DNA of 64,000 bases from Centroscyllium fabricii (GCA_051313645.2 JBNRSN020000018.1:37758001-37822000), one strand, 5' to 3'; positions 6,608-51,300 are shown, counted from the stretch's first letter. A program made the numbers and translations. The notes: generated by a model not told the origin, from the letters alone.

Positions 6608-6944
6608 CAGGTACACAATCCTTTATCCGAAAACCTCGGGACCGCATAGCTCTCTGATTTCGGATAATTTCAGTTTTCGGAATGGTCGCATTAACGTACG
6701 TTTTTCTGCAGCGAATCTTGTAAATATTCACAAAAGTGGGTCAGTCTGCTGCGCTTTTAGGCATTTTTCCAAAAAATAACGCCGCAAATTCGCAAAAATA
6801 TCGGAGATCAGCTGTCAGATACTGACGCCTCTGACCTGCGTGGGTCACGTCGGGTCATTTTTCGCGCGCAGCTCGGGTCATTTGAAATTTCATTTTTTGG
6901 AGGTTTTTAGTTTTCGGAGTTGCGGATAAAGGATTGTGTACCTG
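6608..6944. mobile_element. pogo/Tigger-type MITE, family B
   Basis: Perfect TIR CAGGTACACAATCCTTTATCCG / CGGATAAAGGATTGTGTACCTG, with TA on both sides. Confidence 0.9.
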
Positions 6945-7212
6945 TAATTTGCAAATTTCAATGTTCAGGTGTGGTGGTATTGAACCATGCTGTTGGGTTC
7001 TCTTTCTTTTCTCCTTCAGGCATAATTTATTCCAAAAAAAAACCTGTCTCCTGCTTGGTGCCATCCACTTCTCCCTTGTAAACCGCTGAGACATTCTTTG
7101 AGATGTTGGGCTGCAAATGCATCTTGTGGATGGTGGTTGCATTCCTGTCGACGTTTAATTAATGTGGATTTTTGTAAAATTTGGAGTGGGATGGGCAGGG
7201 TAATGGCAACTA

Positions 7213-7413
7213 TGATGTGGAGGTGCCGGTGTTGGACTGGGGTGGACAATTGCAAGAAGTCACACAACACCAGGTTATAGTCCAACAGTTTTATTTTAAA
7301 TCACAAGCTTTCGGAGCCTCTCTTTCCACCTGACGAAGGGGCGAACGCTCCGAAAGCTTGTAATTTAAAATAAAACTGTTGGACTATAATCTGGTGTTGT
7401 GTGACTTCTTGCA
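7213..7413. mobile_element. Penelope pseudo-LTR inverted pair (hairpin) with hammerhead motif
   Basis: Arms ~7250-7317 and ~7348-7413 are reverse complements. Contains CAC-CTGACGA-AGGGGC..GCTCC-GAAA-GCTT. TSD-like taatggcaacta on both sides. Confidence 0.85.
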
Positions 7414-8317
7414 ATAATGGCAAGCAATAATGGCAACTAGTTGGAGCACTGAAGAATGGTTGGGAAATGCGACTTGGGAAAGGCAGCTGAAGGCACGACT
7501 ACCACTGGTGGAGCAATTCAAATCGAAGATGCGCAAGAGGCCAGAATCGGAGGAGGAGTGCAGCGATCTCGAAGGGTTGTAGAGCTGGAGGAGGTTGGAG
7601 ATAGGAAGGGGCAATGTAAGGAGGTACAAGAAGAAAATAATTGAAGTCTCGCACTCGACTAAACAGAAGCGGGAAAAGAAACGCGAGTGTAGTTGCACCG
7701 TGACAGATGTGTACAGCCAGCTGACATATTTAGTGATCAAAGCGCTCATGCAAGGTCTTATCAATGAAGAGAACCCTCCAACTGTGAACAGCGAGACTCG
7801 GAGAAGGAGGGGGCATGCACCTGACGGCAACAGCGCTGATCTTATCATGTGAGTGATCGGCCATGCTCTTGAAACAAACTTGACACGTCAGCCTGTTTGA
7901 GGGATCTTTAGAGAATAAGCTATTTGCGCTTTCTCTGAGGCTTTTTGTTAAGAAGTCTGGGTCATTAATAGGTGATTAATGGTATGGCCCACAGGATTGC
8001 AAGGTCACCTTAGATCAGTGGGGTGCACTGCAGCTCAATGTTCTTGGAAACCAACCTGCCTGCAATTCACAGACAGGTACAATGCAAACCTTTTATAAGT
8101 GATCCATGTTGCCCTGTTTTATTCAACTTAACAAATGTCCATTAAATCTAGGAAATGTGACCGTCAGATGCACCCCAATAATGACGGTTCCATATCTTTA
8201 AATCAAAGTGCCTTTACAATTCACCCGTGTAGATATTTAACTGATTTTATTTTGATCAGTCAGCTGAATAACTTCCTATGTGAATTATTAAGCATAAACT
8301 GGGAGTAATATCTCAAT

Positions 8318-8972: not shown

Positions 8973-8979
8973 ACTTGTA

Positions 8980-9346
8980 CAGGTTGTGCACCGTTAATCC
9001 GGCACTCTCGGGACCAGGTAGGCTGCCGGACTGCTGAAAATGCCGAACCACTGAAGGTTCGGGGAGCGCATGCGCAGACCAGTCAAAATGGCCGCTGTGC
9101 ATGCGCAGACCAGTCAAAATGGCCGCTGTGCATGCGCAGACCAGTCAAAATGGCCGCTGCGCATGCGCAGACCAGTCAAAGAGTGATGGAATGGGACTCT
9201 CCGGTGCTGCCGGGGAGAGGCCCGCGCATCGCGGGGTGCTGCCGGGGTGAGGCCCGCGCATTGCGAGCGTCCCTTGGATCACGTGGGCCAGCCAGCGGGA
9301 TTCGTGCTGGACCACTGAAGGTGCCAGATTAACGGTGCACAACCTG
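8980..9346. mobile_element. pogo/Tigger-type MITE, family A (NRF1/YY1-rich)
   Basis: TIR CAGGTTGTGCACCGTTAATC / GATTAACGGTGCACAACCTG, TA TSD, internal 31-bp tandem array. Confidence 0.9.
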
Positions 9347-9991
9347 TATTTATATGGCGCCTTTAATGTAGTAACACATCCCAAGGCACTTCACAGGAGC
9401 GTTATCAGACAGAATTTAATACCGTGTCACAGAGATATTGGGGCAAGTGACTGGGTGGGTTTTAAAGAGCTGCTTAAAGGAGCAAAGAGGGGTAGAGAGA
9501 TGGAGAGGTTTAGGGAGGGAGTCCTGGGTATAGACTCCAGAAGTGAGGTGTACTAAAGGCAGAAGACCGATTCCAGCTAGACAAGTCATTGCTAATTTAA
9601 ATTTCCTGCCACTATTCTACTTGTTCTTGTCTGGTTTATCCATGTTGTTGGGACAAACAATATCCCCTATAAGTAGAGCGAACACTAGTTCAACAGTCGG
9701 GAGATTTGCATTTGATACTGAGACTAGACTTGGTCTTAAATTAACTCCTTTGTTGTAAAATTCTGCCTAATTTATGACAAGTCTGTCGTCAGCTGTTTCA
9801 GTGGAAGCTCTCTTCATCGAAATTATAACATGATCCTGAAGGTTGATAACCTGAGCTGAGGCTATCCGAGAATAGATGTTCAGTGTGAAGAAATGCATGT
9901 GCCTGCTGTAGTTCTGTTGTGGCCATATGGCTCGTTTGTTTGCCAACTACAGTCATCTCTAATGGATTTAGGATATTTAGTTTCCCTTCAC

Positions 9992-12413: not shown

Positions 12414-12830
12414 GTGTATCAACTCTGGCTCAGTGGGTAGCACCCTTGCCTCTGAGTCAGAAGGTTGTGGTTTCAAGTCCCACTCCAGAGACATGAGCAC
12501 AAAAATCTAGGCTAACGCTCCAGTACTGAGGGATTGCTGCACTATCGGAGGTGTGCCATCTTTCAGATGAGACGTTGAATCCCATGGCATTATATTGAAG
12601 AGGAGCAGGGGAGTTATCCCCAGTGTCCTTGACGATATTTATCCCTCAATCAACATCATTAAAACAGATTATCTGGTCAGCATCACATTGCTGTCCGTGC
12701 GCAAATTGTCCGCTACGTTTCCTCCATTACAACAGTGATTAACCATCAAAAATGTACTTCATTGGCTGTAAAGCACTTTGGGACATCCGGTGGTCGTGAA
12801 AGGTGCTATATAAATGCAAGTCTTTCTTTT
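12414..12830 (+). mobile_element. DeuSINE/SacSINE1-like SINE
   Basis: tRNA head (tggctcagtgg...ttcaagtccc), Deu-domain-like middle, L2-type tail gaaaggtgctatataaatgcaagtctttc. Confidence 0.75.
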
Positions 12831-13045
12831 TGTAAAGTCCTGTAGCTAGATTATAGGTTGAAGTTTGGATGTCTGTGCACTCAATAGTGTGAAAATATTT
12901 ATAGCGTATGAAAATTTATTGACTGTTTTTGAAGAAATTAAATTTGACACTCAATTTTACAGACTATTTTCTTGTGGCGTTGCTCAAAGTGAATCGGGGA
13001 CATGCTGCTCTATACTGCGAGTTCTGTCAGATAATGCACTATGGG

Positions 13046-13388
13046 AAAGAAAAACTTGCATTTATATAATGCCTTTATGACCTCAAGATGTCAGAGTGCT
13101 TTACAGCCAATGAGGTATTTTTGAACTGTAGTCACTTGTGATGTAGGAAATGCGGCAGCCAATTTGCACACAGCAACCCACAAACTCCCCTGCTCCTCTT
13201 CGAAATAGTGCCATGGGATCTTTTACATTCACTCGAGAGGGCAGACGAGGCCTCGGTTTAACGTTTCATCCGAAAGGCGGTACCTCCGACAGTGCAGCAC
13301 TCGCTCAGTACTGCACTGAAGTGTCGGCCTATATTTTGGGCTCAAGTCTTGTGGCAAGAGTGCTTACCACTGAGCCACAGCTGACACC
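13046..13388 (-). mobile_element. DeuSINE/SacSINE1-like SINE
   Basis: Reverse-complement similarity to 12414-12830. Confidence 0.7.
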
Positions 13389-13561
13389 TAACAATGTCAT
13401 AATGAGTGGGGGGGGGGGCATTTATACAGGTTGAGATCCGTTAGCCGAAAAACCGGCAGCTTCAGTCGACCAGCACAGGTTTTCCCGACTGCCCAGCGCA
13501 TGCGCAGACAATTCAAACTGGCCACTGTCGGGGCTGGGCTTCCCTTTCACCTAACACTCAC

Positions 13562-13683
13562 TGGATCCCGGCTTAGTGACCATCCCGATGCCGATGGTGA
13601 ATCCCAGACTCAGAAGATGAGCTGTTGTGCCAGCCGCCTTTCACAGGACGCGGTACAGCCAAAACTCGGCCCGGCTCTGCCAT
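13562..13683 (-). pseudogene. CYB561D2: Captured first coding exon of a CYB561D2-like gene (frameshift and stop)
   Basis: Minus strand: ATG at 13683, a frameshift within the first codons, then AEFWLYRVL*KAAGTTAHLLSLGFTIGIGMVTKPGS(S), followed by donor GTGAGTG (13561-13555). Resembles human CYB561D2 [32 protein letters not shown]. The TGA at 13643-13641 fits CGA CpG decay. D2 rather than D1 is assigned by its head-to-head position with NPRL2. Confidence 0.85.
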
Positions 13684-13826
13684 CGCTGCCGGAGGCTCCT
13701 GCCTGGCTGCGTGCTGACGTCACCGCGTTCCGAAGCTGGCGTGCAGTGGAGTCACGTGAGCCGGGCTTGAGCCGTGCATTGGGCCTCAGGCCCGCTGGAG
13801 CCGTGCAGCCCGCTCCCTGATCCGCC
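13684..13826. promoter_or_regulatory. Captured bidirectional promoter / 5' UTRs
   Basis: GC/CpG-rich 143 bp between divergent ATGs. CRE TGACGTCA at 13715-13722; E-box/CLEAR-like GTCACGTGA at 13751-13759. Confidence 0.75.
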
Positions 13827-13898
13827 ATGGGCAGCAGAATCGAGTGCGTCTTTTTCAGCGAGTTCCACCCGACCCGTGGCCTGAAAATCACCTTCCAG
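13827..13898 (+). pseudogene. NPRL2: Captured exon 1 of NPRL2 (GATOR1 subunit)
   Basis: Kozak GCCATGG; [24 protein letters not shown] vs human [26 protein letters not shown]; ends CAG|GTAC, where I recall the human exon 1 boundary. No further NPRL2 exons were seen. Confidence 0.92.
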
Positions 13899-15120
13899 GT
13901 ACCGGCGAGCGCATGCGCAGAGCATTCAAAATTTTGCAGCGGCCATTTTGAATGCTCTGCGCATGCGCCGCCGCAGCTTCAATCATTCGGTGTTTTCAAA
14001 AATTCGGCTGAGTGCTGGTCCCGACCCTGACGGATTAACGGTGTTCAACCTGTATATTGATACCCATTCTGAATCAGTATAAAGGGACTGCCTCGGGTAA
14101 ATCTGTCCGCTGCTGAGGTGGGGTTTCAATCCTGCCTGTGTTGTTAAGGTAACAAAATCTAACTGGGCCTTTGTAGAAATCTGATGATCTTGCTCAACTA
14201 TCCCCTGTGGGTGAAGTTCAATAAATAAGCATGTCCTGAAGTCAATTAAAGGCTAATTGCAGGTGCTCAAAATTTTCCTGTTTACTAAAAAGATACAATT
14301 TCTTTTTAAGACGCCACTTGCTGAATCGTGATGACCTATAATTTTTATGAATGGTATTTGAGCCAATCAGGTGCAAGTGCGATCCACATTTTGGATATGT
14401 GCCATTTTGAGGGGTGATAGACAATTTATTTTATGTGCTAGCAGATTTCACATTGAATTGGGGGTTTTCTAAGCACGTGGCGATGTCATAGCAAGTAGTA
14501 TTAGCTGGGGCACTGACATGGCAGCATTGGGAAGGGATGCTAAGGTCTGACAGTACTGGGTGAGTTTTGGCACTCAGTGATATTTTAGGGGGAAAGGGCA
14601 GGGATGAGGTTACCCTCAACGCAGAAAAGGGGTGTTCTGGGGAATATTGGGGCAGGTCTGGTGAACGAGGTCTCGGAGCAGGTAGCATTGGGGGTGATGC
14701 TGGGAATGGGGGCTGTGAAAATGCAATTTAGGGGTTTTGAGCACTGCAAGACTGTCCTGGGGAAGTGGGGTGGGGTGCAGTTTGGGGATGGGGTCTCTTG
14801 GGGTCCAACATGATTGGATAGCGGCCTTGGGGAGGGATGAATTTTGGGAGGTTGGTGGAATCTGCCAGTGTTAGAGGAGAGCAGGATCCAGAAGACCTGT
14901 GGAGAAGGGGGAATCGCCAAGCTAATGGGACCCAGTGTACCATTGGGCACCAACTCTCCCAACCATGTTGGCCCCTTACCCTGACCTTTGTACAGCCTCA
15001 TTGGTTTGCCCCGCAGCTTTCCCTATCGCCGGCCAGTCCCTGTCTTTTGTATTCCTTACAACATTTAAGGGGAGATTTTCAGCTTCTGTGCTCCAGGTAC
15101 ACACTGGGTGGGGGTGGGGG

Positions 15121-15936
15121 GGGGGGCCGATTTTCATGGCCCCGTGAGGCGGGGTTTTTGGTGGCCCGGCCGGCAAAATAGCGGATCCGGCGGGTCCCGC
15201 CCCTCCCTGCCGCTTTCTCATTTTCATGCCCCCAGATTCCCCGCCCCGAAACCTTCCCCCCCGCCGACCGGCGGGGATGGGTTGTCACCTCGTTAAGGGC
15301 ATCTTTAATGCCATTTTAAGGGCCCTCAGCCATTTTGCCGTGTTTTCCGCCCTAACCCCGCCACCGTAAACCCCGCTGGGTGAAACCCAGCAGGAGCACA
15401 GCGCTGGTTATAACTTCTGGACTATAACCTGGTGTTGTGAGTTCCTGAATTTATTACTTTCTCCTTGAAGGTTTGAAGGACATGCTGCCAAATGCTTAGC
15501 ATGCCTCCAGCACCTTAGAGGAGATAGTGACTCCGTTCTGCCTTCAGTATCAGCTCTGACCAGAAACTGAGCAATCTCAGTTCTCACCATGTCCTCACAG
15601 CCGCTGCCGAGCTGTGAGGCATTCAGAGCCCGCCCGCCCACCTGTCAGTCACCAGCACTTGGCCTTTCCCATTGGCTCCACTCCACTGTGATGTGACAGT
15701 AGAGTGTTGCCATGGGAACTGATAACAAGAAGTGCTGGAACTGTGAATCAAAGTGCTCGCAGCTCTGCTGCAGCCCGACTCGATTCACCTAATCACCTCC
15801 CGCTGCCGCCGACGGGGATTTAACAACCTCATTAGCCTAAAATTGCGTGGGCTTCCCAGCTGGTTGGGCGGGCGGGACCGGAAGCCTCCCAGACCAATCC
15901 CCACCAGGTGCCCGCCCTTCCATCAAAATTGCCCCC
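15121..15936. mobile_element. GC-rich non-autonomous DNA element, probably PIF/Harbinger-type
   Basis: Termini GGGGGCCGATTTT / AAAATTGCCCCC; collinear with 30857-31654. Confidence 0.7.
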
Positions 15937-17980
15937 TCGGAGTGCAGAATTGTCAAAGTTACCCTTTACTGCGCGAAGAGTTTGACAACTTTAGGCAGTC
16001 TTTAACAAACATAAATGTCTATAAACAACAATTATCGCATAAAACATTCAAACATTCATTAATATACAGTTTTGAGTTTTAATAAAAATATTGTTGAGAA
16101 ATCATTCAGAAGACTTTTTTAAACTGAACTTTCAACTGAAATAGAGGGAAATGTCTTATTAAAAATCCATTCTCAATAACCGGTATTTTTGTTTTCTATC
16201 AACAAGGAAACCAAAGCTGTTCTAATTACAGAATTGCCTGGCTCTGAATTTAAGTGTCATCACTTGCCTGAAATAAAGCTTTGATTAATTCAAACTAACT
16301 TGGCAGAGGGATGGGATACAGAGGGGAACAAAAACAGGGGGTGATGTGCAGACAAATATAGAGGAAAAAATAAGTCTGCTTGGAAGGCCGTACAAATATG
16401 TCTCAGCATAAGGGGGTAGGGCAAGGTTAAATGGCATTTATTTTAATGCAAGGAGTCTGGCGAATAAGGGGGATGAATTGAAGGTGTTGTTAAACACATG
16501 GGAATATGATATTGTTGCCATTACAGAGGCATGGTTGAGGGAGGGGCAGGACTGGCAGCTCAATATTCCGGGGTAAAGAATCTTCAGGCAAGACAGGGAG
16601 GGGGGAAAAGAAGAGGGGGTGTCGCGATATTAATTAAGGAGTCAATTACTGCTGTAAGAAGGGATGATATATTGGCAGGGTCCTCTAATGAGGCTATTTG
16701 GGTGGAACTTAAAAATAAGAAGGGGGCAAGCACATTACTGGGAGTATACTACAGACCCCCAAACAGTCAGAGGGAAATAGAGGAACAGATTTGCAGGCAA
16801 ATCTCGGAGAAGTGTGGAAATAACAGGGTAGTAATAGTAGGGGATTTCAACTTCCCCAATATTGACTGGGATAGCCAAAGTGTGAAGGGCTTAGAGGGTG
16901 CAGAATTCTTAAAGTGCATCCAGGAGAGCTTTTTGAGCCAGTATGTAGGAAGTCCTACAGGGAGGGTGCGGTATTAGACTTAATTCTGGGAAATGAGGCT
17001 GGGCAAGTGGTAGAAGTGTTAGCAGCAGAGCACTTTGGGGACAGTGACCATAATTCGGTAATATTTAAGGAAGTAATGGAAAAAGACAAAGATGGACCAG
17101 AAATAAAGGTTCTAAATTGGGGCACGGCCGATTTTTAATATGATAAGGACTGGGCCCAGCTACTCGAAGGAAAGTCCGCATCAGAACAGTGGGAGGCGTT
17201 CAGAAAGGAAATTGAGAAAGTACAAGGGAAACATGTTCCCCTAAAGGTCAAGGGTGGGACCAATAAGCCCAGGGAACCTTGTATGTCAAGGGATATATGC
17301 GAATTGATTCGGGGAAAAAAGGGGGGCTTTCGGCAGACATAAAGAACTAAAGACAGAGGAGGCTCTAGAGGAGTATAGAAGGTGCAGGGGGGTACTTATT
17401 AGGAGAGAGAGGAGGGGCCATGAGATAACCCTGGCGGGCAAAATAAAAGAAAATCCTAAGATGTTTTTTAAGTATAAGGGCAAGAGGATAACGAGGGAAA
17501 GGGTGGGGCCCTCAGGGACCAAAGTGGAAATCTGTGTGTAGAGCCAGAAGATGTAGGTGGGGTTTTGAATGAATTTTTTGCATCTGTGTTCACTGTGGAG
17601 AAGGGCGATGTGGACTTAGAAAGAAGACCGGAGGAATGCGATACACTTGATCGTATTAGTATTGACAGGGAGGAGGTACTAGCGGTTTTAGCAGGCTTAA
17701 AAGTGGATAAGTCTCTAGGCCCTGACGAGATGTATCCCAGGCTGCTGGGTGAGGCTAAGGAAGAGATTGCAGGGGCTCTGACACAAATTTTCAGAACCTC
17801 TCTGGCCACAGGGGATATGCCGGAGGACTGGAGAATGGCCAATGTAGTGCCATTATTCAAGAAAGGTAGTAGGGGTAAACCAGGGAATTACATGCCAGTG
17901 AGCCTGACATCAGTGGTGAGGAAATTACTAGAAAAAATTCTGAGGGACAGAATTAGTCTCCACTTGGAGAGGCAAGGATT

Positions 17981-19894: not shown

Positions 19895-20605
19895 GATAGG
19901 CTGGGGTTGTTTTCCTTGGAGCAGAGGAGGCTGAGGGGGGACCTGATTGAGGTGTACAAAATTATGAGGGGAATAGATAGGTTGGATGGAGTGGAACTTT
20001 TTCCCTTGGTAAAGGGGTCAATAACTAGGGGGCATAATTTCAGGCTGAGGGGCAGGAGGTTTCGTGGGGATGTGAGGAAGAACTTTTTCACCCAGAGGGT
20101 GGTTGGAGTCTGGAACTCACTGCCTGAAAGGGTGGTAGAGGTGGCAACACTCACAATGTTCAAGAAGCATTTGGATGAGTACTTGAAATGCCACAGCATA
20201 CAAGGCTATGGACCAAATGCGGGAAAATGGGATTAGAATAGACTGCGATTGATGGGCGGCACGGACGCGATGGGCCGAAGAGCCTCTTTCTGTGCTGTAT
20301 TACTCTATGACTCAACCTCCAGTTTCTTTCAAAGTTTAATGTAAAAAGCAAGGAAACTCAAATCCTCAAAGGATAAGAGACACGCCCTCTTCCAGCAACT
20401 CACAGGCTGTAAATTGCTGGGAATTTCTGCAAACTCCATGCGTCAAGTGCTCCGAGATGGTTGGAAGTTCTCCCCAACTGCTACGGTATAAATATCGAGT
20501 TGAAGCCCATGCTTCTGACAGGCTGAGGCCTTGAAGCAAAAACTTTAAGCAAGGCCTTTAATAGAGACGAAAGACAATTCAATGGGCAAATTTAATCATC
20601 ATATA

Positions 20606-22920
20606 CAGGAAACTCATGGATTTTCTCTTACCCGGCAAAATTCTCGCTCCGAAAACCACACCTCAATAACCGGCCATGTTGCCAAGTCTCCCACAGTGGC
20701 CGAGTTAGTCAATCGGGGTAGTTCTCCAAACTTCCACTACTCGGCTTCTTGGCACTGTCGGAAGTTGGAACACCTCAATCCCCCTGTAACAGGAGCCTGA
20801 CTCTCCTGCGCTGCCGGTAGTTTCTTCTGATCCGCCATTTTACAGGGGTAATGTGTGTCTCCCACGCTACTGGTAGTCATTGCATTGCATTATGGAAATC
20901 CCAAAAGTTGGTTCAAGCAAAAGGAAGAGCGTGGTGTTAACTTTAAAACAAAAAATCGAGATATGCCAACGACTAGAAAGAGGAGAGAAACGTATCAACA
21001 TTATGAATGAATTCAAAATCGGTTTGTCAATAATCTACGACATCAAATCACAGAAGGATAAGTTGCTCAAGTTTTATTGAAGCTCGGAGACATCTAAGAG
21101 TGTAAAGAAATGGCGTACGCTTCGTAAGCCGAAGCTTGAAGAGCTGGATACCATGCTTTATGCATGGTTTTCTCTTAAGCATTCAGAGGGTGTTCCGATT
21201 TCCGGACCCATGTTAATCGAAAAAGCAAAATATTTCCACGCAAAGATGGAGCTCACTGAGAAGTATACTTTCTCCGAGGGCTGGCGACGACTCGATAGTT
21301 CCGGGGAGAAGAAATCAGCTGATCACGACGCCGCAGAAGAATACTGCAATTATTTCAATCGGATTGTGCAGCAACATGATTTGTCGCCAGCACAGCTATA
21401 CAATGCCGATGAAACGGGCTTATTTTGGAGGTTTTTGCCAGAATCAACGCTTGCTGGGGCTAGTGAGGCTAATGCTTCAGGTTACAAGAAAAATAAAGAT
21501 CGTGTAACCGTGCTAACATGTGCGAACGCTGCTGTATCGCACCAGGTTAAACTTCTTGTTATTGGGAAGTATAAAAATCCCCATGCATTTAAAAATGTGA
21601 GGCACTTAGCTGTTGCGTACAAAGCTCAAAGAAATGCTTGGATGGATAAGGAAATCTTTTCGAATTGGTTCCATCATATTTTTGTTTCATTTGTGAGGGA
21701 ACAGTTCCGTAGAATAGGGAAACCTGAAGATAGCAAATGCATTTTATTGCTTGATAATTGTAGAGCCCATCCGCATGAATCCGAATTGGTTTCAGGAAAT
21801 ATTTTCACCATTTATTTGCCACCAAATGTAACTTCTCTCAAACAACCCATGGACCAGGGAGTTATCCAAAATCTCGTGTCATTACAAGAAAGACTTCCTA
21901 TGTAAACTGATAAGCCAAGATGACAATATTCACGCATTTCAGAAGGAATACAATCTTAAAGATGCCATCTTTAATGCTGCATGTTCCTGGAACTTGGTGA
22001 AAGGTCACACTTTGAAACAAGCCAGGTGCAAATTATGGCATTCTGTAATGTTTACTGAAGGTTCTTCAGAGGAGGAATTTCATGGGTTCAATGTTCGTCC
22101 CAAGAGGAGTACAGTAATGGAAATGGCTGTAATGGTGAAAAATGTAGGCCCAGCAAACCCTCTAGGTCACCTCAGTGAAAGTGATATTGAGCAGTGGGTT
22201 GATGCAGATCGAGAAGTTGCTGTTGTGCATATGTGAAGTGATGATGAAATAATGGAGAATGTTTTGAATCCAAAGAAAGAAAAGGAAAGTGAGATGGAAA
22301 GTGAAGAGGATGAGATTTCTGAAGAGATGATTTCTTGGGTTAAAGCTGCAGAAAAATTGGCTTTATTCCTCAGATTTGCTGAAAGCCATTCTTGCTATTC
22401 TGCCCAAGAAGTTATGCAACTCCATATTCTGAATTCCACCTTTCTGCAAAAAAGGCAAGAGTCCACTAAGCAAGCAGACATCCGGGACATGTTTAGGAAA
22501 GCCTCCAAAAGAGTTGAAGCAGTGGAAGTGCCTGAAGAATCTGTTGAACTGCGTGATCCTGATGACCCAGCTGACATGGACATTCCTGCTGAACCAGTTG
22601 ACTTGGAATAAGTGTCCAGTCAACCACAGTCATTTATAGTGTACTGTACAGTCGTTTATAAGTTTTGTTTTATTGTTAAGTAATTAAAAAGTTATGGATT
22701 ACACTCAACTGGCAGTACTGTACTTAATCAAGCATCTTCCACCATCCATTTAACACAACATTCTGTAGGTGAGTACCCAATTACTGTATACTGCACATTT
22801 CTTGATCTTTTAATTTTTCTTTGTTTAAAAATAGCCTTGGTAGATAACCCGGTATCCGGACTTTTTGATAAACCGGCAACGTGCCGGTCCTGTCGGTGCC
22901 GGATAAAAAAGAGTTTCCTG
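20606..22920 (+). mobile_element. Full-length Tigger/pogo DNA transposon
   Basis: TA-CAGGAAACTC ... GAGTTTCCTG-TA, 2.3 kb, contains a transposase remnant. Confidence 0.9.
20892..22611 (+). pseudogene. Tigger/Jerky-like DDE_1 transposase, disrupted
   Basis: CENP-B-type HTH (KRKSVVLTLKQKIEI; [13 protein letters not shown]) and catalytic motifs [27 protein letters not shown]; split over four ORFs. Confidence 0.9.
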
Positions 22921-23951
22921 TATTGTGAAATATGTAACTTTGATTGTTTTATTTTGCTTAAAACCTTCTTTTGGAGATGAGAAATTTCAGTCACTGAGGG
23001 AGAAAGAATGGTGGATACAAATATTTTCTAAAATCATCATTTCGGTTGCTTCATCAACAAATTGTGATGGTAATGTTATATTAACATGGGTTTTCCATTG
23101 GCAGTGTATGGATTTTCCATAGCATGACACAGGAAGGTACATAAAATGCACTAGGTTTTTAAAAGATATAAAAATGAAGAAAATTATTTTTTTTCTCTGG
23201 AAAGCCAGCACGCAATGTTACACAAAGTTATAGCATGATATGCAAACAGCTGGTTAGTAGTGCTTAACTGACCTTTTCATTCAAAAATTTGTGATACAGT
23301 GGTCGCTCCAGATTGGTCAAGAATTATGTATCAACTCTGAATAAGACTTCAGTTTTACAGGTCTCTGATGCCAAATAGTTTCAGCCATTTAGGACTGAGA
23401 TGAGGAGAAATGTCTTCACTCGGAGGGTGGTGAATATTTGCAATTCTCTACCCTAGAAGGCTGTGGAGGCTCAGTCGTTAAGCATATTCAAGACGGAGAG
23501 CGATAGATTTTTGAATATTAAGAGTATCAAGGGATATGGGGATAGTTCAGGAAAGTGGAGATGAGGTAGAAGATCAGCCATGATCTTAGTGAATGAAGGG
23601 CCAAATGGCCTACTCCTGCTCCTATTTCTTATGTTATGTTCAAATATGAGTTATTATAGTGGGTAAATTGTAGATAGCAGTTTGTTAAAATCCATCATTT
23701 TGTAAAGGCGGCAGAAATGCAGCATATGTAATGTGACGCTCTGAGTTATATCCTCAATCTCAACTGTGCTGAATAAACAGCTACTCTGTCGTGTTGCACA
23801 GTCAGTAACTCTTACCATGCTGAATAAACAATTGTGGGGTGGCACAATGGCATTCTGGGATTAGTCCTTAACAAACTAATTAATTTCAGACTCTCTCTCT
23901 TTGATGTGACCATTCCCAGTAAGTGCAACAAACAAATGCATCAAAAATTTG

Positions 23952-24641: not shown

Positions 24642-25191
24642 TTTATGCTGCATGTTATGTGGTATTGTGAAGTATTTGAGAAGTTAGTGTGCGTTACTAT
24701 GTGCTGGGAATGATAGCGTGCTAACATTGGTCACATTGCAAACCTGCTGAACGGCAGTGACTGAGCTGAGAAAGAAAAGACCAGGTACAAGTGTTTATGC
24801 TCCTCACGAGCTTCCTCCCACCCTACTTCATCTCAACCCTATCAGCATAACCTTCTATACCTTTCTCTCACGTGTTTATCTAGCTTATCGTTAAATGCAT
24901 CTGTGCTATTCATTTCAACTACTCTCTGTGGCAGCAAGTTCCACATTCTAACCACTCTCTGGGTAAAGAAGTTTCTCCTGAATTCCTCATTTGATATATT
25001 CATCTCTAGTTTGGACCCCCCCCCCCCCCCCCCCCCAAGCAGAAACATTTTCTCTATGCCTATCCTATTGAAACCTTTCATAATCTTATGAAACCTCTTA
25101 TCTGCTCACCCTCAGCCTCCTCTTTTCTAGAGAAAAGAACCCCACAGCCTGTTCAGTTTTTCCTGATAAATATAACCTCTCCGTTCTGATA

Positions 25192-25548
25192 CAGGTTGAG
25201 CACCGTTAATCGATCAACTTCAGTCGTCCGGAACGAATCCGGCCAACTGGTGCGCGCATGCGCAAAATGGCCGCCGCACTTGGCTGCGCATGCCCAGGCC
25301 TCTCCCCGACTGGTCTGCACATGCGCAATATGGCCGCCGCGCTTGGCTGCGCATGCCTGGGCCTCTGCCCAAACAACTGATGCTTCGGCGAGCGTGTGCG
25401 CAGACCACTCAAAATGGCCGCCGGCGTTCATGGCAGCCATTTGGAATGGTCTGCACATGCGCTCGCTGAAGCTTCAATTGTTCGGATTTTTCAAAAATCG
25501 GGGCCCCGTCCTGGTCCCAGCCGTGCCGGATTAACGGTGTCGGACCTG
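25192..25548. mobile_element. Family A MITE
   Basis: TA-CAGGTTGAGCACCGTTAATC ... GATTAACGGTGTCGGACCTG-TA; several GCGCATGC and AAAATGGCCGCC motifs. Confidence 0.9.
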
Positions 25549-25561
25549 TATTATCCTTGTA

Positions 25562-25828
25562 CAGGAAACTTTTTATCCGGCACTGATGGGACCGGCATGG
25601 TACCGGTTGATCAAAAAGTCCAGATTACAGAGAGGTATACTTACCAAGGTACGAGAACCCCGTACACGACCAGAGGTGCAGGAGCCCCGGTTACACGGCC
25701 ACAGATCCAGGAACCCCGGTTCCATGGCCACTAATATATAGTAAAACTTATCTGAACCTACTCCTGAATTTTGCCGGTTAAGAGAGATTTCCGGATATTT
25801 AGGTGCCGGTTAAAAAAAGAGTTTCCTG
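25562..25828. mobile_element. Family C MITE (TIRs of the Tigger at 20606)
   Basis: TA-CAGGAAACTTTTTATCCGGCAC ... GTGCCGGTTAAAAAAAGAGTTTCCTG-TA. Confidence 0.9.
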
Positions 25829-26134
25829 TAAATGTTTTTTGCACCTTTCCCAGTGCCTGTGTATGCTTTTTGTAATATGGAGACCAGAACTGTGCACAGT
25901 ACTCACTCGGTAAGTGAGAGCTGGAGACTGGAACAAAACAGTGGGATGGTTGACATCAATTGCTATTGGTGCACTGCATGGTGTGGTGCTAAGGACGTAC
26001 AGGCCTTGAGTGTTCACGTGCCATATCTGGGCTCTGCTTAGTTATCTGATCTCACTGGGGCAGCAGTTGTGTGTTAGTGTTGTTCAATGGGTCTGGGCTG
26101 TTTTTTTTAATTTTTGTTCTCTGGCTTCTAGCTA

Positions 26135-30856: not shown

Positions 30857-31654
30857 GGGGGGGCATTTTCATGTCCCCGTGAGGCGGGGTTTTCGGCGGC
30901 CTGGCCGGCAGAATAGCGGAACCGGCAGGTCCCGCCCTCCCCCGCTGTATCCCCGCCGCTTTCTCATTTTCGCCCGTCCAGATTCCCAGCCCCGAAACCT
31001 TCCTGCCGCCGACCGGCAGGGATGGGTTGTCACCTCGTTAAGGGCCCTTAATTGGCATCTTTAATGCCAATTTAAGGGCCCTCGGCCATTTTGCCCTGTT
31101 TCCCGCCCTAACCACGCCACCCTAAACCCCTTTGCACAGCGCTGGTCATTACTTTTGGACTATAACCTGGTGTTGTGTGACTTCTTGCATTTATTACTTT
31201 CTCCTTCAAGGTGTGAAGGACATGCTGCCAAATGCTTGGCATGCCTCCAGCACCTTCGAGGAGTAAGTAACTCCGTTCTGGCTGCAGCAGCAGCTGTGAG
31301 CAGAAACTGAGCAATCTCAGCTCTGAACATGTCCTCACAGCCTCTGCGAGCTGTGAGGGATTCTGAGCCCGCCCGCCCACCTGTCAGTCACCAGCACTTG
31401 GCCTTTCCCATTGGCTCCACTCCACTGTGATGTCACAGTGGAGTGTTTCCATGGGAACTAACAACAACCAGTGCTGGAACTGTCGATGCAGCCCGACTCG
31501 ATTGACCTAATTACCTCCCGCTGCCGCCAACGGGGATTTAACAACCTAATTAAACTAAAATTGCGTGGCCTTCTCAGCTGTTTGGGCAGGCGGGACCGGA
31601 AGCCGCCCAGACCAATCCCCACCAGGTTCCCGCCCTTCCGGCAAAATCCCCCCC
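30857..31654. mobile_element. GC-rich Harbinger-like non-autonomous element (sister of 15121-15936)
   Basis: GGGGGGGCATTTT / AAAATCCCCCCC termini; TAT(AT) on both flanks. Confidence 0.75.
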
Positions 31655-31751
31655 TATATCTGATTAAAAAGAACTGGCGACATCGCCTGAGAGTAGCTGA
31701 CCAGAAAAAGAATGGCAGATATGGACCCATGTCCCATCATTCCCTGTGTTA

Positions 31752-32147: not shown

Positions 32148-32649
32148 CCTTGCACGCTGCGGTCTTCCCGAGTCTGGCCCTCCCTTGCGCCCCTCGGCAA
32201 AAACCCTTGTAAACAACCACACAAGCTTTGGTGTGTTTCAAAGCTATAATGTGCCTTGGGGTCAGATGAGGAAGTTCAACTCGTGTTATTTTTGCCATTT
32301 GAACTTCTTGTGCGCTGGCTTTTATTTGTAATTTTTGATTAATCTGAGGTTTTGCACATTGAGATGGGGGGAGAGTCCTGATGCATCCATGCAGTAAGTA
32401 ATTGTCCTATAATAAAAACAGAAAATGCTGAAAACACTCAGCAGGTCAGGCAGTATCTGTGCAGAGAAAAGCAGAGTTAACGTTTTAGGTCAATGATACA
32501 ACATAATTCTTCTATGTTACAACACCTGGTGGCCATGGTGTCCAGATTTATTTTTAAAAATGGGTTATATGTGACCCATTCTGAGTCTGCATGAAGTCTG
32601 GTAAGTTTCCTGAGCAGCGACTGAACTTCTGCGTGCATAGTTTAATTAC

Positions 32650-33294
32650 AACGCAAAATCGTCGAGCAGAGGCTGATTGCCAAGTTCCGCACCCATGAGC
32701 ACGGCCTCAACCGTGATATTGGGTTTATGTCACGCTACATGTGACCCCGCCTGACGTAGAGTCATCCAGACTCGAACCATCTTCGGCTTGTTCTGCGATT
32801 TTAAGTAAGAAAAATCATGGTTTTAAAAAAAATCATTCTGTGGGATTTACAGCAGACTAACATTTGACCCTGTGACTGCACCCTTTGATATGTTGGAAAA
32901 TCTTGGACTGCTTTGATGTCCCGCCTGACGTAGAGTCATCCGGACTAGGGACATCTTTGTCTTGTAAGGAAATTCCCTTTTTTTAAATCATTCTGTGTGT
33001 TTTGCAGCATTTGACCCCCCTTGTGACTGTGCCTCATTGCTCGCAGACTGAGGTGTTAAAATATGTTAATATGCCTTTGTGTGCTCTCTGTCTCTGCTAG
33101 GGTGAGATGTGGAAGAGATCGGATTTCTCCCTTCCTCCGATATGTGTGATCTTTAAGTCAGTCTCTCTGTCCACCTGAGGAAGGAGCAGTGCTCCGAAAG
33201 CTTGTGATTTAAAATAAAACCGTTGGACTATAATCTGGTGTTGTGTGACTTCTTGCATTTGTCCACCCCAGTCCAACACCGGCACCTCCACATT
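32650..33294 (+). mobile_element. Penelope 3' fragment
   Basis: ORF end IVEQRLIAKFRTHEHGLNRDIGFMSRYM*, pLTR with hammerhead at 33172-33206, TSD agtttaattac. Confidence 0.9.
33172..33206 (+). ncRNA. Minimal type I hammerhead ribozyme (Penelope)
   Basis: CAC-CUGAGGA-A-GGAGC agu GCUCC-GAAA-GC-UU-GUG: core boxes, stem II, palindromic stem III, CAC/GUG stem I. Confidence 0.75.
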
Positions 33295-40270: not shown

Positions 40271-40793
40271 CATTTGTGTTTTTGCAGGGTACTGAGTTCA
40301 AAACATGCTGATGTTAGTTAATACCCCTTCTTCTCCCCACCCCACCAAAATAAAAACTTGATTACACCTTTATGCGTACATACTTTTGTTTTAAATTCCA
40401 TGTCATTATTTACAATCCTTCCATGTCTTCGCCCCACGTCTGCCACACTGTCTTAACTTGCGACTTCTCTCCTCCTCAAAATTCATCTCTTTGACCAAGA
40501 CGTCATTTACCTTTCAACTCTCCTGCAAAAGCTTGACAATCATTCCTTTCTTCTGTCATAAAACACCATGAGGTGTTTTTCTACATTACTTGCACTGTAT
40601 AAGTGAAAATTGTTACTGGTCTGTTCTCCTTATGATTTCCAAAAAGATCCATTTTTGATCAATTTAATCAGCAAGGTGCACATTTTATTTGCAGTGGTTG
40701 GTTTATAGGTCTGGTCATTTTGCTCCTTGAAGAGTGCATACATTATTCTTGGAACGTCGTATTATTAAGTTTGTAATACAGAGCCGGCAAGTA

Positions 40794-41446
40794 CAGGTAC
40801 ACAATAATTTATCCGAAAACCTTGGGCCCGGATGGTTCTCGGATTTTGGATAATTTCGGTTTTTGGAATGGGAACAATTAACTTGCGTTTTTCTGCAGCG
40901 AATCTTGTAAATACAGGTTGTAATGGCCACCGTGATTGATGCTTGGTGGAGCTTGCCTGTCCAGGATCAGGTGGTGTGTGAGCTGGGCTGTGATTGGTGG
41001 AGCTTGCTTGTCTAGGATCAGGTGGTGTGTGAGCTGGGCTGTGATTGGTGGAGCTTGCCTGTCTAGGGTCAGGTGGTGTGTGAGCGAGGCTGTGATTGGT
41101 GGAGCTTGCCTGTCTAGGGTCAGGTGGTGTGTGAGCTGGGCTGTGATTGGTGGCGCTTGCCTGTCTCGGGTCAGGTGGTGTGTGAGCCCCGGGGGCTGTG
41201 ATTGGCTGCAGCCACTGAGTTTAAACTTCCGGCGGCCATTTTGAATAATCAGTCAGTCGGCATTCACAAAAGTGCGATAAAGAACGACTTTCAGCAGTTT
41301 ATAAATGCCCCAATAAAGTTTATTTGTAAGGGAAACATTCAATAAAGTGCGTCTGGTCATTTTTCGTGCGCAACTTGGGTAATTTGAAATTTCAGTTTTC
41401 GGAGCTTTTCGGTTTTTGGACGTGCGGATAAGGGATTGTGTACCTG
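40794..41446. mobile_element. Family B MITE with CCAAT tandem insert
   Basis: TA-CAGGTACACAATAATTTATCCG ... CGGATAAGGGATTGTGTACCTG-TA; extra 40914-41261 relative to 6608-6944. Confidence 0.9.
40944..41187. repeat. 51-bp minisatellite, ~5 copies
   Basis: Unit ctgtgattggtggagcttgcctgtctagggtcaggtggtgtgtgagctggg. Confidence 0.95.
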
Positions 41447-41803
41447 TACTTATTTCTTGTAAGAAAACAACAATAAATAAAACCCTGAGTTCTGCATTAT
41501 TCATTTAAGTTAGAATTTAGCACTTAAAGTGACTGAGCGTAAAGGTTGGGGTGGTGGTAGTTGCGGAGTTCATTCGTACAGTAGTGTTTTAAATTCCATG
41601 CCCACAATTCATTGTTTGCTGGAGTTGGGCAGCAGTACTTCAGTCTGCGGCCCAGTAATTACTGTTGAATTTATATTTTCATGTCTTTTCTCCCCACATC
41701 TTCTGAGTTGACTCCTTGCTAAGTTATGGTTCACTACCTGTCGCTCCCTGGTACCTTGTTCCGATGCAAGCCTAGATGGCGAGTAGCAGGGCTGGGAATA
41801 GTA

Positions 41804-42184
41804 CAGGAAACTCTTGATTTACCGGCATCTAAATAACCGGAAATCTCTGTTAACCGGCAAAATTCAGGAGTAGGTTCAGGTAAGTTTTACTTCATATTAG
41901 TGGCCGTTCCTGCATGTGTGGCTGTGTAACCGGGGTTCTTGCACCTGTTGCTAAGCAACAGGGAAGCCTGGATTTGTGGCCGTGATTCTTGCACCTGTTG
42001 CTAAGCAACAGGGAAGCCTGGATTTGTGGCCGTGATTCTTGCACCTGTTGCTAAGCAACAGAGAAGCCTGGATTTGTTGCCATGTACGGGGGCTCTCGTA
42101 CCTTTTACTATACCTCTCTGTAGTCCGGACCTTTTGATAAACCTGCACCACGTCGGTGCCGGATTTAAAAAAAAGAGTTTCCTG
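41804..42184. mobile_element. Family C MITE with 50-bp tandem array
   Basis: TA-CAGGAAACTCTT ... AAGAGTTTCCTG-TA; reverse orientation of 25562-25828; 50-bp unit x~2.8 at 41941-42080. Confidence 0.9.
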
Positions 42185-43137
42185 TATATTTTTCTGTCCA
42201 TTGGTATCCACACGTATACACGTGCGCGCAGACGCATGCTTCGAGCAGCAGTTGTTTAAATTGTGATCAGGAACAGCAACCCTTGCTAATTATGACACTC
42301 GTGCCATTTTACTGGCAGAGATCAGCTAACTCAGCACAAGACTGGGGTTCAAATCTGAGAGATTATTTTTGTATTTATGCCTCGGCTACTTCTCTGCCTT
42401 AACCAGCCAAATCATTGGGGAGCCAGTTTCACATAGTTTAAGTTGAAAAATGTATTTACGGCATTCTGACTGTTCATCTCGGCAGAAGAGAAAAACATTC
42501 CAGCAATTCAGGAAAATGAATAAAATTGTCAGCGTGTGTGTAAGTCTTTGTCACTTTTTTTTTGCCAGAAAACAGTCAATAAAAAAGGTAATGCAGAGCT
42601 GAAAAGCCTGTGGAGTTGAAAAGCTAGCAGATTCTCCAACAGAGCTGGGTTTTAAATCTAACTGATGACTAGTCAAATCAAACCATTCAGACTTGACCCA
42701 ATTTCTAAATTGAGGAATCAATCACTGGTCTGTGAGGAAGGCTGGTGATACTTTTTTTTAAATTTCATTTATATTTTTGGGTGAATTTCTGTGTTCAGAC
42801 AAATGACAGTGCTGGAATATATAACATTTTCAATATTTGTCCCCTGTGTCGGTATCTCGTTTGGTTGGGCTGACGATGAGCATCGGTTAGATGCTGAGTG
42901 GAGCTCCTCTGTGCTCATCTGACCCCGGAGCAGCCTCTCCCTGCTGCACACTGTGACGTTGATTTTACTCATCATCCGCCCCTGTAGCCTGAGTGAAATT
43001 TGGCACCAAATTTGCATATTTTTCTCTGTTGTCTGAGCTTTGTGCTGCAGGTAGGTGCCTGCTTGGAATTGGATTGTTGTAAACAAACAGACTTCATTTG
43101 TGCCACTCTGCTGAGGAATATTTGGCGGCAAAATTTT

Positions 43138-43799
43138 GGGGAGAAAATTCAGTTGCTTTGTTCCTCCAGTTAGCGCCCGGGCGCGACACAGCCAACGCCT
43201 CCCGTGAAATTCAGCGGGAGGTTAACGGCGGTGGTAATCGGTACCGCGGCGTTGCGCCGCCGGCAATGACGTTATCGCCGTGCACAGCGTCCCACTCATG
43301 CCCCAGCCGCCATCTTCAGGAGCACCCCCCTGACTTACTGCCATATGCTATGTCCAATGGGGTCAGGGGGACCGACCTGCGGCCGGGGAGGCGCTTTTTA
43401 AAGGCACGGTGCAGGGCGGCCATTTTTGTTGCTGGCCGCCTGCCAACACCTGCCTCCGCCCCCAGCCTCCTTACCCGCCCTCCCGCGGAGTGCCGGCTGC
43501 ATTCCATGAGCCTGGCACTTCTCTGCCGGGCTCTCTCGCTGGCACTCCCGATCACCGGTGGCCCACCTGGGTCCCGGGTCGCGCTGCGCAAGGCCCCTCC
43601 CCTTTAAGGTGGTGAGGAAGGCCTGCAGTACTGCGGCACGTAGCGCCATGATATTCCCTCGCAGCGCCCCAAGGGGGAGGTGGGGCACTCCAGTAGCGCC
43701 CCACTTCTCTCTCGGGGCGCTACCACTCAACTTTTGTCGCGGGGGCGCTGATTTTTCTAGGGTGCTAAAAGGCGAAGTCAGCTACTCAATTTTTATCCA
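43138..43799. mobile_element. GC-rich non-autonomous DNA element (Harbinger-like)
   Basis: Imperfect TIR ggggagaaaattcagttgc / gctactcaatttttatcc bounding a CpG-rich block in AT-rich DNA. Confidence 0.55.
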
Positions 43800-44791
43800 T
43801 TGAACTCTTGTACCTGGAAGTGAAAGTCCTTGGGATTGTGATTTAAAGGTGATTGTGTTGCACATCATGATTGAAGAAGACCTGACCAACTTTTTTTTAT
43901 AATAGAAACTATCATTTACTTATACTTGATCTACACTATTTATTGAAAAATAAAAGCTACACCTTTGAGGTGTGATGATGCAGGCCCATGCTCTTAAGTT
44001 ATCTCACTGTGGGTGGCTGACCAGAATCGCTGCTCCTATTTTGGAAGGGAGAACAACAGGAGTGAGGAGCATCCTTATAACGCCAGCTGGTGCAAATAGT
44101 TTGACCTCTTGCCTTCAGAACTGCATGGCCTGGCAATACACATTTGCTGGGCGTAGAAGAAGAATTTGATTTTTTTTAACATAAATAGTTAATATTGCAC
44201 CTGTTGTGCAAGGTGGATGGTAGTGTTAAGCTTGCCATGCATAGCACTGACGTATGGTTGTTAAATGCAGTGCAGTTGCCATGTCACTGCTAACATACCA
44301 ATGAGTCTATAACACTGCTTACTATAATGCTTTCTTTTGTGCCATTTTCCCCATTTGATAACCACTGATAGCTGCTAAATTAGTGGCGGTTCTGTTGTAT
44401 TCGACTCTTAATAGACCCATCATTGTATGCTTCTTGCATAATTTACCAAGAACAAGTGTTCGAGAAAGTTCCTTTTAAAAGGTTCTCTAAAAAGCTTGCA
44501 TTAGCAGCTCATGATTTTGAGGATTGGTGTCCCGTCTAAGCATCATACAATCTAGTTGTTTTTTGCTGTGTTCGTATTCTCAATCAGCTTGACTGTCAGT
44601 TGTTCAATTGGACCAATATTTTAAAAGGATGGCAAGGCTGAACGAGTTCCTGGGAAGACACGTCTTCCTCATAATGGTAATTGAAACTCGATTATTGATT
44701 TACCTTAAAACAGAGAAATGTCTGTGTTATAGCTCCATATTTAGTTTTAAAGTTATTGATGTAATCCTCCTGGATTTTTGGATTCACGCCA

Positions 44792-49400: not shown

Positions 49401-49610
49401 TCCGATTTTTTAATTTACCTCCTAACTCCCTGTATTTGCTTTTAGGACCTCATCTCTGTTTTTACCTATATCATTGGTACCTATGTGCACCGCAACAACT
49501 GGCTGTTCCCCCCTCTCCCTCCAGAATGCCCTGCAGTCGCTCCAAGACATCCTTGACCCTTGCACCAGGGAGACAACATACCATCCTGGGGTCTCGTTTG
49601 CGGCCGCATA
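46475..49610 (-). mobile_element. CR1 with ORF1 esterase, APE and deleted RT
   Basis: ORF1 SGNH-like VHIGTNDIGK and WLEEWC..EGF; ORF2 CLNARSI, GDFNLHIDW, RRNFFTQRVV; (ctatgttt)n-type tail. Confidence 0.9.
47287..47675 (+). mobile_element. HE1-like V-SINE nested in CR1
   Basis: Matches 9992-10401. Confidence 0.9.
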
Positions 49611-50770
49611 AGTGAAAGATGCAGCTTTATTAAGAGGCCCCACTTTGATAATTTTCTAGCTTGGATCCCTAATTTATGATTCTCATCTCCCTGCATAAAA
49701 GTGTAATTTATTGTGGTTCATGTTTACACTACAGTGATGTGCTTCCTCTGGATGCTGCAAGTCTTGTTCCAGAAATACGTAGGTCACATAAATCCATTTA
49801 GGATTCATGCTATCCAATGGATTTTTTTCTATGCTTGCTGTCTGATTGAAGGGCGGGCATTGCCACCTCATGTATTGTACAATTTACTAGGTGGGAATAC
49901 TCGTTTCATTTGCCAGGGTAAGCAGCAGCCTTCATTGTTTCATTGCTGAAGTGTGTCACACAGAATGTTTTCTCAATATACTGTGTGATAAAAAGCAATT
50001 GAAAGGTAGGGGAGGAGGAGTTGGAGCTTAGTGATTATTAGTATTTGCTGGAGTGCAAGATTTCCTGGGCAGAGTATGCGGCATGAGTAGGAATTTAAGT
50101 GTACATGTAAGCACCTCAATGAGATGATAATCCTTTAAACTGTTAACGCATGTAGTGAAAGGAAATGATTCTTCTCCCAGGTGGTCTGGGCCTTCAGTAG
50201 TCATGTGTAGTTATTTATATATTTATTTTGCATTTCCTTGCTCATACCTTGGTGATGTTTTAAAAAACTTGGTACAACTCTGCACGGGCACATGGAACAG
50301 AGCCTGCATGGGTAAGGTGTCAAACCACTACTGTAGACCATGAAGGTTAATTGCATCTCTGCTTGCTTCACTTCATACAGCAAATTCTACACTGACGTGA
50401 GAGGCTTGCAGTTTGTAATGGAGTACACCAGGTTTGTGTCGCAAACAATTAAGAGACTGTTTCATTTTATTTTGAATGCTGCCTAATCAGTTTGACGAAT
50501 CTGCCGTAATTTTTTTTTGATGCAGCTGCTTCTGTTCCAGACCTTTTTGATACTTGAGGTTGTAGCTCTCTTTCTCTGAATTACCATTTTATTCATCACT
50601 TGTAGCCTATATGGATTGGACTTGCTGACTATTTCAAGGGTGCAGCTAGTAATTCTCCTCCTCTTCTCCCTCCACCGCTCCTCCATACTAAGGCTGCCAG
50701 GGTTACTGACTGCTCTCTGGTACCTTGTCCAAGTGGCACTTCTTAATGATTATTACGTGCGTGCAAGCTA

Positions 50771-51300
50771 CAGGTTGAGCACCGTTAATCGGGCACGGGT
50801 GGGACCAGGCCCGTGCCGTGAAATGGAAAAAACCGGGAGAACGAGTTTGGACACTGCGCATGCGCGCCAGTCAAAATGGCCGCGCGCATGCGCGCAGCAT
50901 TGCGATTGGCTGGCGCGCGCATGCGCAGATCGGGCCCGGGTCCGCCATCCCTCTCCATCGCCTTTGGGGTTGCTGCTGCCGCCGAGCGGGACTCAGGCTG
51001 ACAGCTGTTGCCTAGTGACTGTCCGCCTCAGTCACGGGGCTCAGCTGTGGAGAAAATAACGGGCGGCCGTATTGAATTATCTGCGCATGCGCTAACCGTC
51101 CGGTGACGCATGCGCAGATCATTCAAAACACCGCAGCTATTTTGAATGATCTGCGCATGCGCTCGGCGCATGCGCAGATCATTCGCTGAAGCCACGATGG
51201 GGGCTGCCATTTTGCGCATGCGCAGTGCAGTCGGGGCAATTTGTGCCGGCAGACTGAAGCTGCCGGCTATTCGGGACACGGATTAACGGTGCTCAACCTG
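50771..51300. mobile_element. Family A MITE with possible cargo
   Basis: TA-CAGGTTGAGCACCGTTAATC ... GATTAACGGTGCTCAACCTG-TA (perfect 20-bp TIR); about eight CGCATGCGC motifs. Confidence 0.92.

Follow-up and report, generated by a model that had tools for sequence, protein, structure and literature searches.

The 64,000-nucleotide stretch of Centroscyllium fabricii DNA analysed here (GCA_051313645.2 JBNRSN020000018.1:37758001-37822000; termed the window, with positions counted from its first letter) consists of vertebrate intronic DNA 3' of an SND1 exon (2613-2753, E 3e-25). It is rich in repeats, as about 20.8 kb of it are matched elsewhere within the window upon self-comparison, and its SINEs resemble those of sharks. 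[quoted passage not shown] MITEs were called by a scan for TA-bounded inverted ends along with self-comparison of the window. Nine elements with terminal inverted repeats (TIRs) were obtained which fall into three TIR families, A (n = 2), B (n = 5) and C (n = 2). All nine are bounded by TA at both ends, as is required for a target duplication (C1 starting at 25560), which confirms the nine TA-flanked copies in three families described in a first-pass annotation of this DNA. They are 271 to 657 bp long, amount to 3,944 bp in total, possess TIRs of about 14 to 27 bp and contain no transposase coding sequence. Together with a decayed transposon they are located as follows:

6606-6946, plus strand: A1, family A MITE, without strict matches to the seven motifs considered below
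8978-9348, plus strand: B1, family B MITE, NRF1-YY1 module present as a 31-bp tandem
13425-14054, plus strand: B2, family B Pack-MITE which bears a promoter, TA on either end, TIRs of about 24 bp
20604-22922, plus strand: decayed jerky-like (Tigger) pogo transposon with family C TIRs, without strict motifs
25190-25550, plus strand: B3, family B MITE made up of backbone alone, with a 63-bp tandem and the module inverted internally
25560-25830, minus strand: C1, family C MITE, without strict motif matches
27705-28098, plus strand: B4, family B MITE likewise made up of backbone alone, module copies nested and inverted, one ETS site adjoining YY1
40792-41448, plus strand: A2, family A MITE with a B-derived insert inside
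41802-42186, plus strand: C2, family C MITE, a 19-bp palindrome of RFX type within a repeated 50-bp unit
50769-51302, minus strand: B5, family B MITE, seven NRF1-type sites

The interior of B2 harbours a segment (GC content 0.63, observed/expected CpG ratio 0.79) which is composed of the following parts:

13526-13905, no strand assigned: captured host segment of 380 bp which comprises a divergent promoter, the first coding exon of either direction and the splice donor of each
13562-13683, minus strand: first coding exon of the divergent gene, donor GTGAGT; the B2 copy contains a frameshift and a single stop
13684-13826, no strand assigned: core of 143 bp between the two ATGs, with a CRE at 13715 and an E-box at 13751
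13827-13898, plus strand: first coding exon of NPRL2, 24 codons, with GT directly 3' at 13899

The translation of 13827-13898 matches human NPRL2 with an E value of 1.1e-8 (phmmer); its match to the Pfam family NPR2 (E 0.0012) is below the curated cut-off. The exon on the opposite strand is presumably that of CYB561D2, which we take to be the head-to-head neighbour of NPRL2 in human, although no tool confirmed the name, and this head-to-head arrangement was not found stated in the literature searched. Since the cargo holds intron starts on both sides, the capture took place at the DNA level. The NPRL2 exon of B2 is oriented as SND1; it ends in phase 0 and the SND1 intron is apparently in phase 1, so that a spliced SND1 chimera would be out of frame. 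The SND1 exon itself apparently ends at a GC donor (G|GCAAGT, 2754-2760) in place of GT.

Contigs from four of the 21 listed sequencing runs (organisms A, C, F and G) were aligned to positions 13250-14250 at 80% likeness. The ends of family B have a depth of 0 in organisms C and G and of 1e5-1e6 in organism A. Within the cargo, organisms C and G display a depth of 14-26 contributed by single contigs. In organism G, one 588-base contig matches exactly the interval 13526-13905, with 26 differences and seven gaps, and runs beyond the cargo into other sequence on both sides, and in organism C two contigs cover 13526-13742 and 13757-13905. As these matches end at 13526 and 13905, the captured interval amounts to 380 bp. 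Both organisms share a 2-base insertion behind 13668, with a further insertion at 13643 in organism G, and because of these insertions the divergent exon is open in either of them. These contigs represent the source locus, the cargo being single-copy where family B is absent. A further contig of organism C matches the right flank of B2 from 14053 onward at a family B depth of 0, with no joint across the element among the contigs listed. B2 thus combines a host-derived interior (NPRL2) with a source free of the transposon (contigs of C and G), which is what defines a Pack-TIR. The first-pass annotation had credited one copy with a real promoter; judged by sequence comparison, the NPRL2 match and the source contigs prove this one capture among nine copies, and the captured segment is larger than had been noticed.

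A quite different situation is encountered in organism A, one contig of which is identical to the window flank over 220 bases. Its summed contig depth in eleven cargo bins has a median of 2.9e5 (4.5e4-6.5e5), compared to 2.8-16.9 in six flank bins, which corresponds to an uncorrected median ratio of 1.7e4-1e5. At up to 6.5e5 the cargo is as deep as the family B ends near the TIRs (1.2e5-5.1e5). Up to 107 contigs share single variants (among the contigs listed, at most 128), several alternative indels occur, and contigs joining the cargo to the family B backbone are present. In some copies the core is duplicated in tandem, with joints leading from 13823/13825 back to 13704. Organism F exhibits the same multi-variant pattern at lower depth. 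At one cargo copy in 64 kb, a genome of 2-4 Gb would contain 8e2-3.5e5 copies (95% Poisson interval), and a copy number of thousands or more is likely. The repeat neighbouring B2 has only two other partial copies in the window, too few to calibrate depth. We also considered a preferential amplification of the promoter core, whose bins (13692-13827) are deeper, and rejected it, as the dips elsewhere coincide with indels private to B2 (13555, 13668, 13824 and 13851-13855) and the exon bin 13590-13623 is equally deep. Directly to the left of B2, nested copies of a very abundant repeat form a large inverted pair (12423-13349) which is present in all four runs.

These contigs also bear on the view that B2 is a one-off, generated by a transposition-independent gap-filling duplication into a dead MITE as is usual for animal Pack-TIRs. 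Most animal Pack-TIRs are single-copy according to the available text of PMC8277862, and the window contains a single cargo copy, but organism A shows about 100 variant contigs per site and, relative to the flank, a depth higher by four orders, organism F being alike, which makes this origin very improbable. As far as can be judged from the contigs, the B2 subfamily is a lineage-restricted, strongly amplified, promoter-bearing Pack-TIR. The description of these MITEs as portable promoter cassettes therefore stands for this one subfamily and not for the rest.

The copies appear to decay. Among twelve listed sites at which B2 differs from the organism A majority, five are CpG transitions. Of the 327 variant places in organisms A and F, 158 are C>T or G>A, compared to 40 among the 147 of organisms C and G (P 1e-5; flanking repeat included in the counts). 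Such CpG decay agrees with methylation of the copies in the germline and argues against a general escape from silencing, which had been suggested as an advantage of these interiors, though some copies may be open.

We then counted motifs, using strict consensus sequences, so that all counts are consensus matches, that is, predicted sites only; 500 dinucleotide shuffles of the MITE sequence served as null model. The MITEs collectively carry all seven motif kinds originally named (NRF1, YY1, NF-Y, ETS, RFX, CRE and E-box), while each of the 500 shuffles contains three at most. All 19 NRF1-type sites of the window lie in MITEs, without exception of family B (shuffle mean 0.30), as do 11 of 16 YY1-type sites (0.09), both ETS sites (0.08), all three RFX sites (0.02), the only CRE (0.03) and the only E-box (0.08; P 0.07 if taken alone). 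NF-Y is not enriched, with two of 20 window sites in MITEs (0.74, P 0.17). NRF1 and YY1 are genuinely enriched, in contrast to NF-Y. Strict motifs for Sp1, ZNF143 and BANP, which are likewise typical of CpG-island promoters, number 0 in the MITEs. For comparison, about 7.2 kb of GC-matched other transposons of the window (a long terminal repeat (LTR) element, an element at 43130 and a family with two copies, at 15120 and 30857) hold no NRF1-type site, yet four YY1-type, two NF-Y, two Sp1 and one relaxed RFX site.

The two-copy family (15120-15937 and 30857-31655) is a GC-rich, inverted-ended element with G-rich termini and CCAAT and Sp1-like sites, its first copy alone bearing an RFX-like site at 15706; because it carries these three kinds of site, promoter-like motifs are not limited to pogo MITEs. 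The element at 43130-43800 is single-copy and MITE-like (GC content 0.62, observed/expected CpG ratio 0.82) and contains two YY1-type sites and one Sp1 site. In the right subterminal region of family A (6855-6890) we take TTTGAA at 6881 to be a CHR-like and the sequence at 6860 to be an E2F-like site; the latter is changed at a CpG in A2.

The distribution of the motifs among the elements is far from even. Strict hits are absent from A1, C1 and the transposase element at 20604-22922, CRE and strict E-box are confined to the B2 cargo, and strict RFX is confined to C2, where the three sites represent one 50-bp unit repeated 2.9 times (41936-42081) which is missing in C1. Tandem amplification of motifs, as noted earlier, is found in B1 (31 bp, 3.6 times), B3 (63 bp, twice), A2 (51 bp, 4.8 times) and C2. 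Three interiors of other elements require separate mention:

9181-9294: interior of B1, 114 bp, unshared and GC-rich
40912-41261, plus strand: insert of A2, opening at TA with the first nine bases of the family B TIR
50932-51061, minus strand: insert of B5, 130 bp, unshared, GC content 0.65; an RFX X-box-like site lies at 51007, two ATGs nearby

The A2 insert comprises two pieces matching B4 (23 and 28 bp), the 51-bp tandem, which contains CCAAT, and an ETS-YY1 pair, before the family A backbone picks up again at 41262; the ETS, YY1 and CCAAT motifs of A2 hence belong to a nested B-derived insert. B3 and C1 are inserted only 9 bp apart (25550-25560), so that, together with the B-derived insert in A2, the three families are seen to cluster and nest. 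The B5 insert is a candidate second capture. The motif list comes down to about five origins, namely the family B backbone, the B2 cargo, the B5 insert, the C2 unit and the A2 unit, host origin having been shown for the B2 cargo alone. The motif counts are not independent, NRF1 and YY1 forming one module. Contrary to the first-pass annotation, the motifs are therefore not spread over three families (NRF1 occurs only in B, A1 and C1 have no hits, and those of A2 lie in the B-derived insert), and a collection of promoter DNA by each family is not supported.

In family B the YY1-type box occupies identical alignment columns in five of five right ends, and an NRF1-type site is located 65-80 bp inward in four of five left ends. 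Internal inversions centred on this NRF1-YY1 module are present in B2, B4 and B5. NRF1 and YY1 thus constitute one fixed subterminal module, placed at a constant distance from the TIRs in all five copies, which has been multiplied by tandem and inverted duplication. The pairwise identity of the right ends amounts to 100/110 in the YY1 box, 400/613 in the spacer and 204/240 in the TIR; at 0.91 the box exceeds the best 11-column spacer window (0.85). Set against 65% for the spacer overall, this lends modest support to the suggestion that selection acts on the interior bound by transcription factors (TFs). Each NRF1-like site contains two CpGs; even so, and although the family B elements are only 70-78% alike, 18 of the 28 are perfect, a proportion biased upward since the sites come from a motif search. 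Probably the parent transposon had this module as its own promoter or protein-binding site, and family B has kept it.

The same arrangement could have arisen as a neutral by-product, palindromes and near-palindromes being multiplied by hairpin-driven inversion and slippage while the NPRL2 cargo hitch-hikes and nothing binds. The NRF1, RFX, CRE and E-box consensus sequences are self-complementary, the inversions in B2, B4 and B5 are centred on the module, the 19-bp RFX palindrome of C2 is missing in C1, and tandem growth inside MITEs is already known, reportedly from work by Hikosaka and Kawahara in 2004 which PMC12676858 cites. However, the YY1-type box is non-palindromic and yet the best-conserved non-terminal stretch, and the perfect NRF1-like sites, with their upward bias, point in the same direction. 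We consider the neutral origin possible but rather unlikely; it can coexist with the explanation we prefer as far as structure is concerned and departs from that explanation on function alone.

The view put forward in the first-pass annotation would have these MITEs capture promoter DNA again and again and by preference, variants with a promoter or a TF-bound interior being favoured in transposition over the rest; the like has been reported for bat Helitrons. It speaks for this view that the sole proven cargo is a divergent promoter and highly amplified, with a depth equalling that of the family B ends near the TIRs, that the GC-rich B5 insert combines an RFX-like site with ATGs, that the YY1 box is conserved, that NRF1-type sites are absent from the GC-matched transposons, and that bat Helitrons offer a precedent (PMC4224331, available text). 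Against it stand one proven capture in nine copies, motif kinds that fall into about five origins, the lack of motifs in A1, C1 and the transposase element, the YY1-, CCAAT-, Sp1- and RFX-like sites in other transposon families of the window, and a CpG decay which argues against escape from methylation. The postulate of a systematic capture bias rests on pseudo-replication. We deem recurrent, preferential capture unlikely and attribute the wider motif vocabulary to the five or so origins named above in place of repeated promoter capture by three families.

The relationship of the MITEs to pogo transposons is not equally clear for all families. The broken transposase of the element at 20604-22922 matches CENP-B_N (E 4.5e-16), HTH_Tnp_Tc5 (E 1.6e-8) and DDE_1 (E 3.8e-37), has 32 residues from the second to the third D (DD32D), and finds its best protein matches in "jerky protein homolog" (70% identity). 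Tigger pogo elements are characterised by TA target duplication, short TIRs, the domains CENP-B_N, HTH_Tnp_Tc5 and DDE_1, and DD29-36D (PMC7386202, available text); as its domains and DD32D agree with this description, the element belongs to the Tigger family. Since C1 and C2 match its ends with 84% over 69 bp, the pogo identity assigned to all nine MITEs is shown for family C. Families A and B have only the first 5-7 terminal bases in common with it and no further match of their ends to this element within the window; their pogo identity is likely by resemblance. The family A TIR is weakly like that at the metagenome pogo loci L010-L012 (E 0.03, a weak match). Of 20 metagenome pogo loci found, 13 were scanned; they yielded no NRF1 or YY1 site, three ETS sites, one CCAAT and one RFX-like site, and clear TIRs occur only in L010/L011. 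These relatives are too distant to inform on the parent of family B. An Rfam search gave 0 matches.

Taking all evidence together, we regard it as probable that family B is a TA-flanked MITE lineage with a built-in NRF1/YY1 module, one subfamily of which amplifies a 380-bp divergent NPRL2 promoter. Family B would have been mobilised in trans by a transposase of the Tigger/jerky type. The cargo may have been acquired once, by template switching or gap repair at a housekeeping promoter accessible in the germline, and then multiplied in one lineage by ordinary cut-and-paste transposition. Each new copy would represent a two-way promoter and exon trap, with an ATG exon and a donor on both strands, but most copies seem to have become methylated and are in decay.

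Several observations weigh against this explanation. Summed contig depth is not equivalent to copy number. Short contigs that overlap could raise it by a factor of up to about 31, and when the lowest cargo bin is set against the highest flank bin and this factor is applied in full, about 86 copies result as the most conservative bound; the variant detail rests on 40 of the 254 variant rows. The NRF1 columns of the family B right ends (76/120) are not above the spacer, because two right ends hold a shifted variant. The interiors of B1, B5 and A2 may be further captures, and the NRF1-YY1 module could itself be an old one. No autonomous family B element was found, exact TIR patterns giving 0 matches in viral and metagenome contigs. 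Similarity searches aimed at naming the divergent exon returned no matches, so that the name CYB561D2 is presumptive.

B2 can be compared with several known systems, based on the available text of the articles cited. In bats, Helitrons such as HelibatN3 have carried NUBPL to about 1,000 copies and the promoters of 15 genes to 4,690 copies (PMC4224331, PMC4778049), capture favours 5' ends, which also attain higher copy numbers (PMC4224331), and for HelibatN3 transcript start and outward splicing were demonstrated experimentally (PMC4778049). B2 resembles them in that a host promoter, first exon and splice donor have been captured at the DNA level and amplified to form a potential exon trap; by this analogy it would have the potential to start transcripts and to splice outward on both strands. 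Unlike these rolling-circle elements with their one-directional cargo, B2 is a TA-flanked TIR MITE with an exon and donor on each strand, and the 5' bias over many captures, a feature of bat Helitrons, faces one proven case in B2. Among animal Pack-TIRs, 370 of which were found in 100 reference genomes, only four are multicopy, the illustrated multicopy case having three copies; the median host segment measures 224 bp, TcMariner is frequent among the carriers, the multicopy cases show a tendency to high GC content, in one frog case a 5' untranslated region had been taken, and template switching and gap repair are the capture models proposed (all PMC8277862). B2 shares the host segment of a few hundred bases between TIR ends, whereas its subfamily is apparently orders of magnitude more abundant. 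The main text of that article, supplements aside, does not mention the word shark. Rice Pack-MULEs capture from GC-rich, broadly expressed genes in open chromatin (PMC5861414), which is the very bias proposed in the first-pass annotation. These elements belong to the plant Mutator superfamily and comprise thousands of distinct low-copy captures, in contrast to the one cargo of B2 at high copy. With the Tigger/JRK clade the element at 20604-22922 shares TA duplication, short TIRs, the three domains and DD32D, its TIRs in turn being common to family C only, with A and B pogo by resemblance. No paper on a promoter-bearing family B element was found in the literature searched, to which most subscription papers, Repbase and Dfam did not belong, so that a catalogue entry for the family may exist in which the cargo went unnoticed.

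Further repeats populate the window. A Gypsy-like LTR retrotransposon (57343-62230), whose 295-bp LTRs are identical and whose gag contains a 45-bp tandem array, is inserted into what is left of an old minus-strand hAT-like transposase (about 56300-63100). Repeats at 7210-7415, 26132-27422, 29890-30125 and 32648-33293 have long inverted terminal copies of one 60-100 bp sequence; we presume a resemblance to Penelope-type ends.

If our explanation is true, mass amplification of promoters, so far a matter of bat Helitrons (as far as the available text of the articles cited goes), would be extended to cut-and-paste elements in a shark lineage. The same CpG-rich promoter placed at thousands of dated sites would constitute a natural experiment on when promoters stay unmethylated, and likewise on whether TF-bound interiors aid non-autonomous transposition and how many chimeric transcripts arise. 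In the genomes concerned, cargo copies would confound NPRL2 annotation and read mapping. That there are tens of thousands of copies of this single, intact bidirectional housekeeping promoter, all of them two-way exon traps, spread because promoter-like interiors (the NRF1-YY1 module of the lineage itself as well as captured promoters like the B2 cargo and the B5 insert with its RFX-like site) raise germline transposition, we hold to be quite unlikely; if such interiors do raise transposition, this would amount to selection among non-coding transposons for open chromatin.

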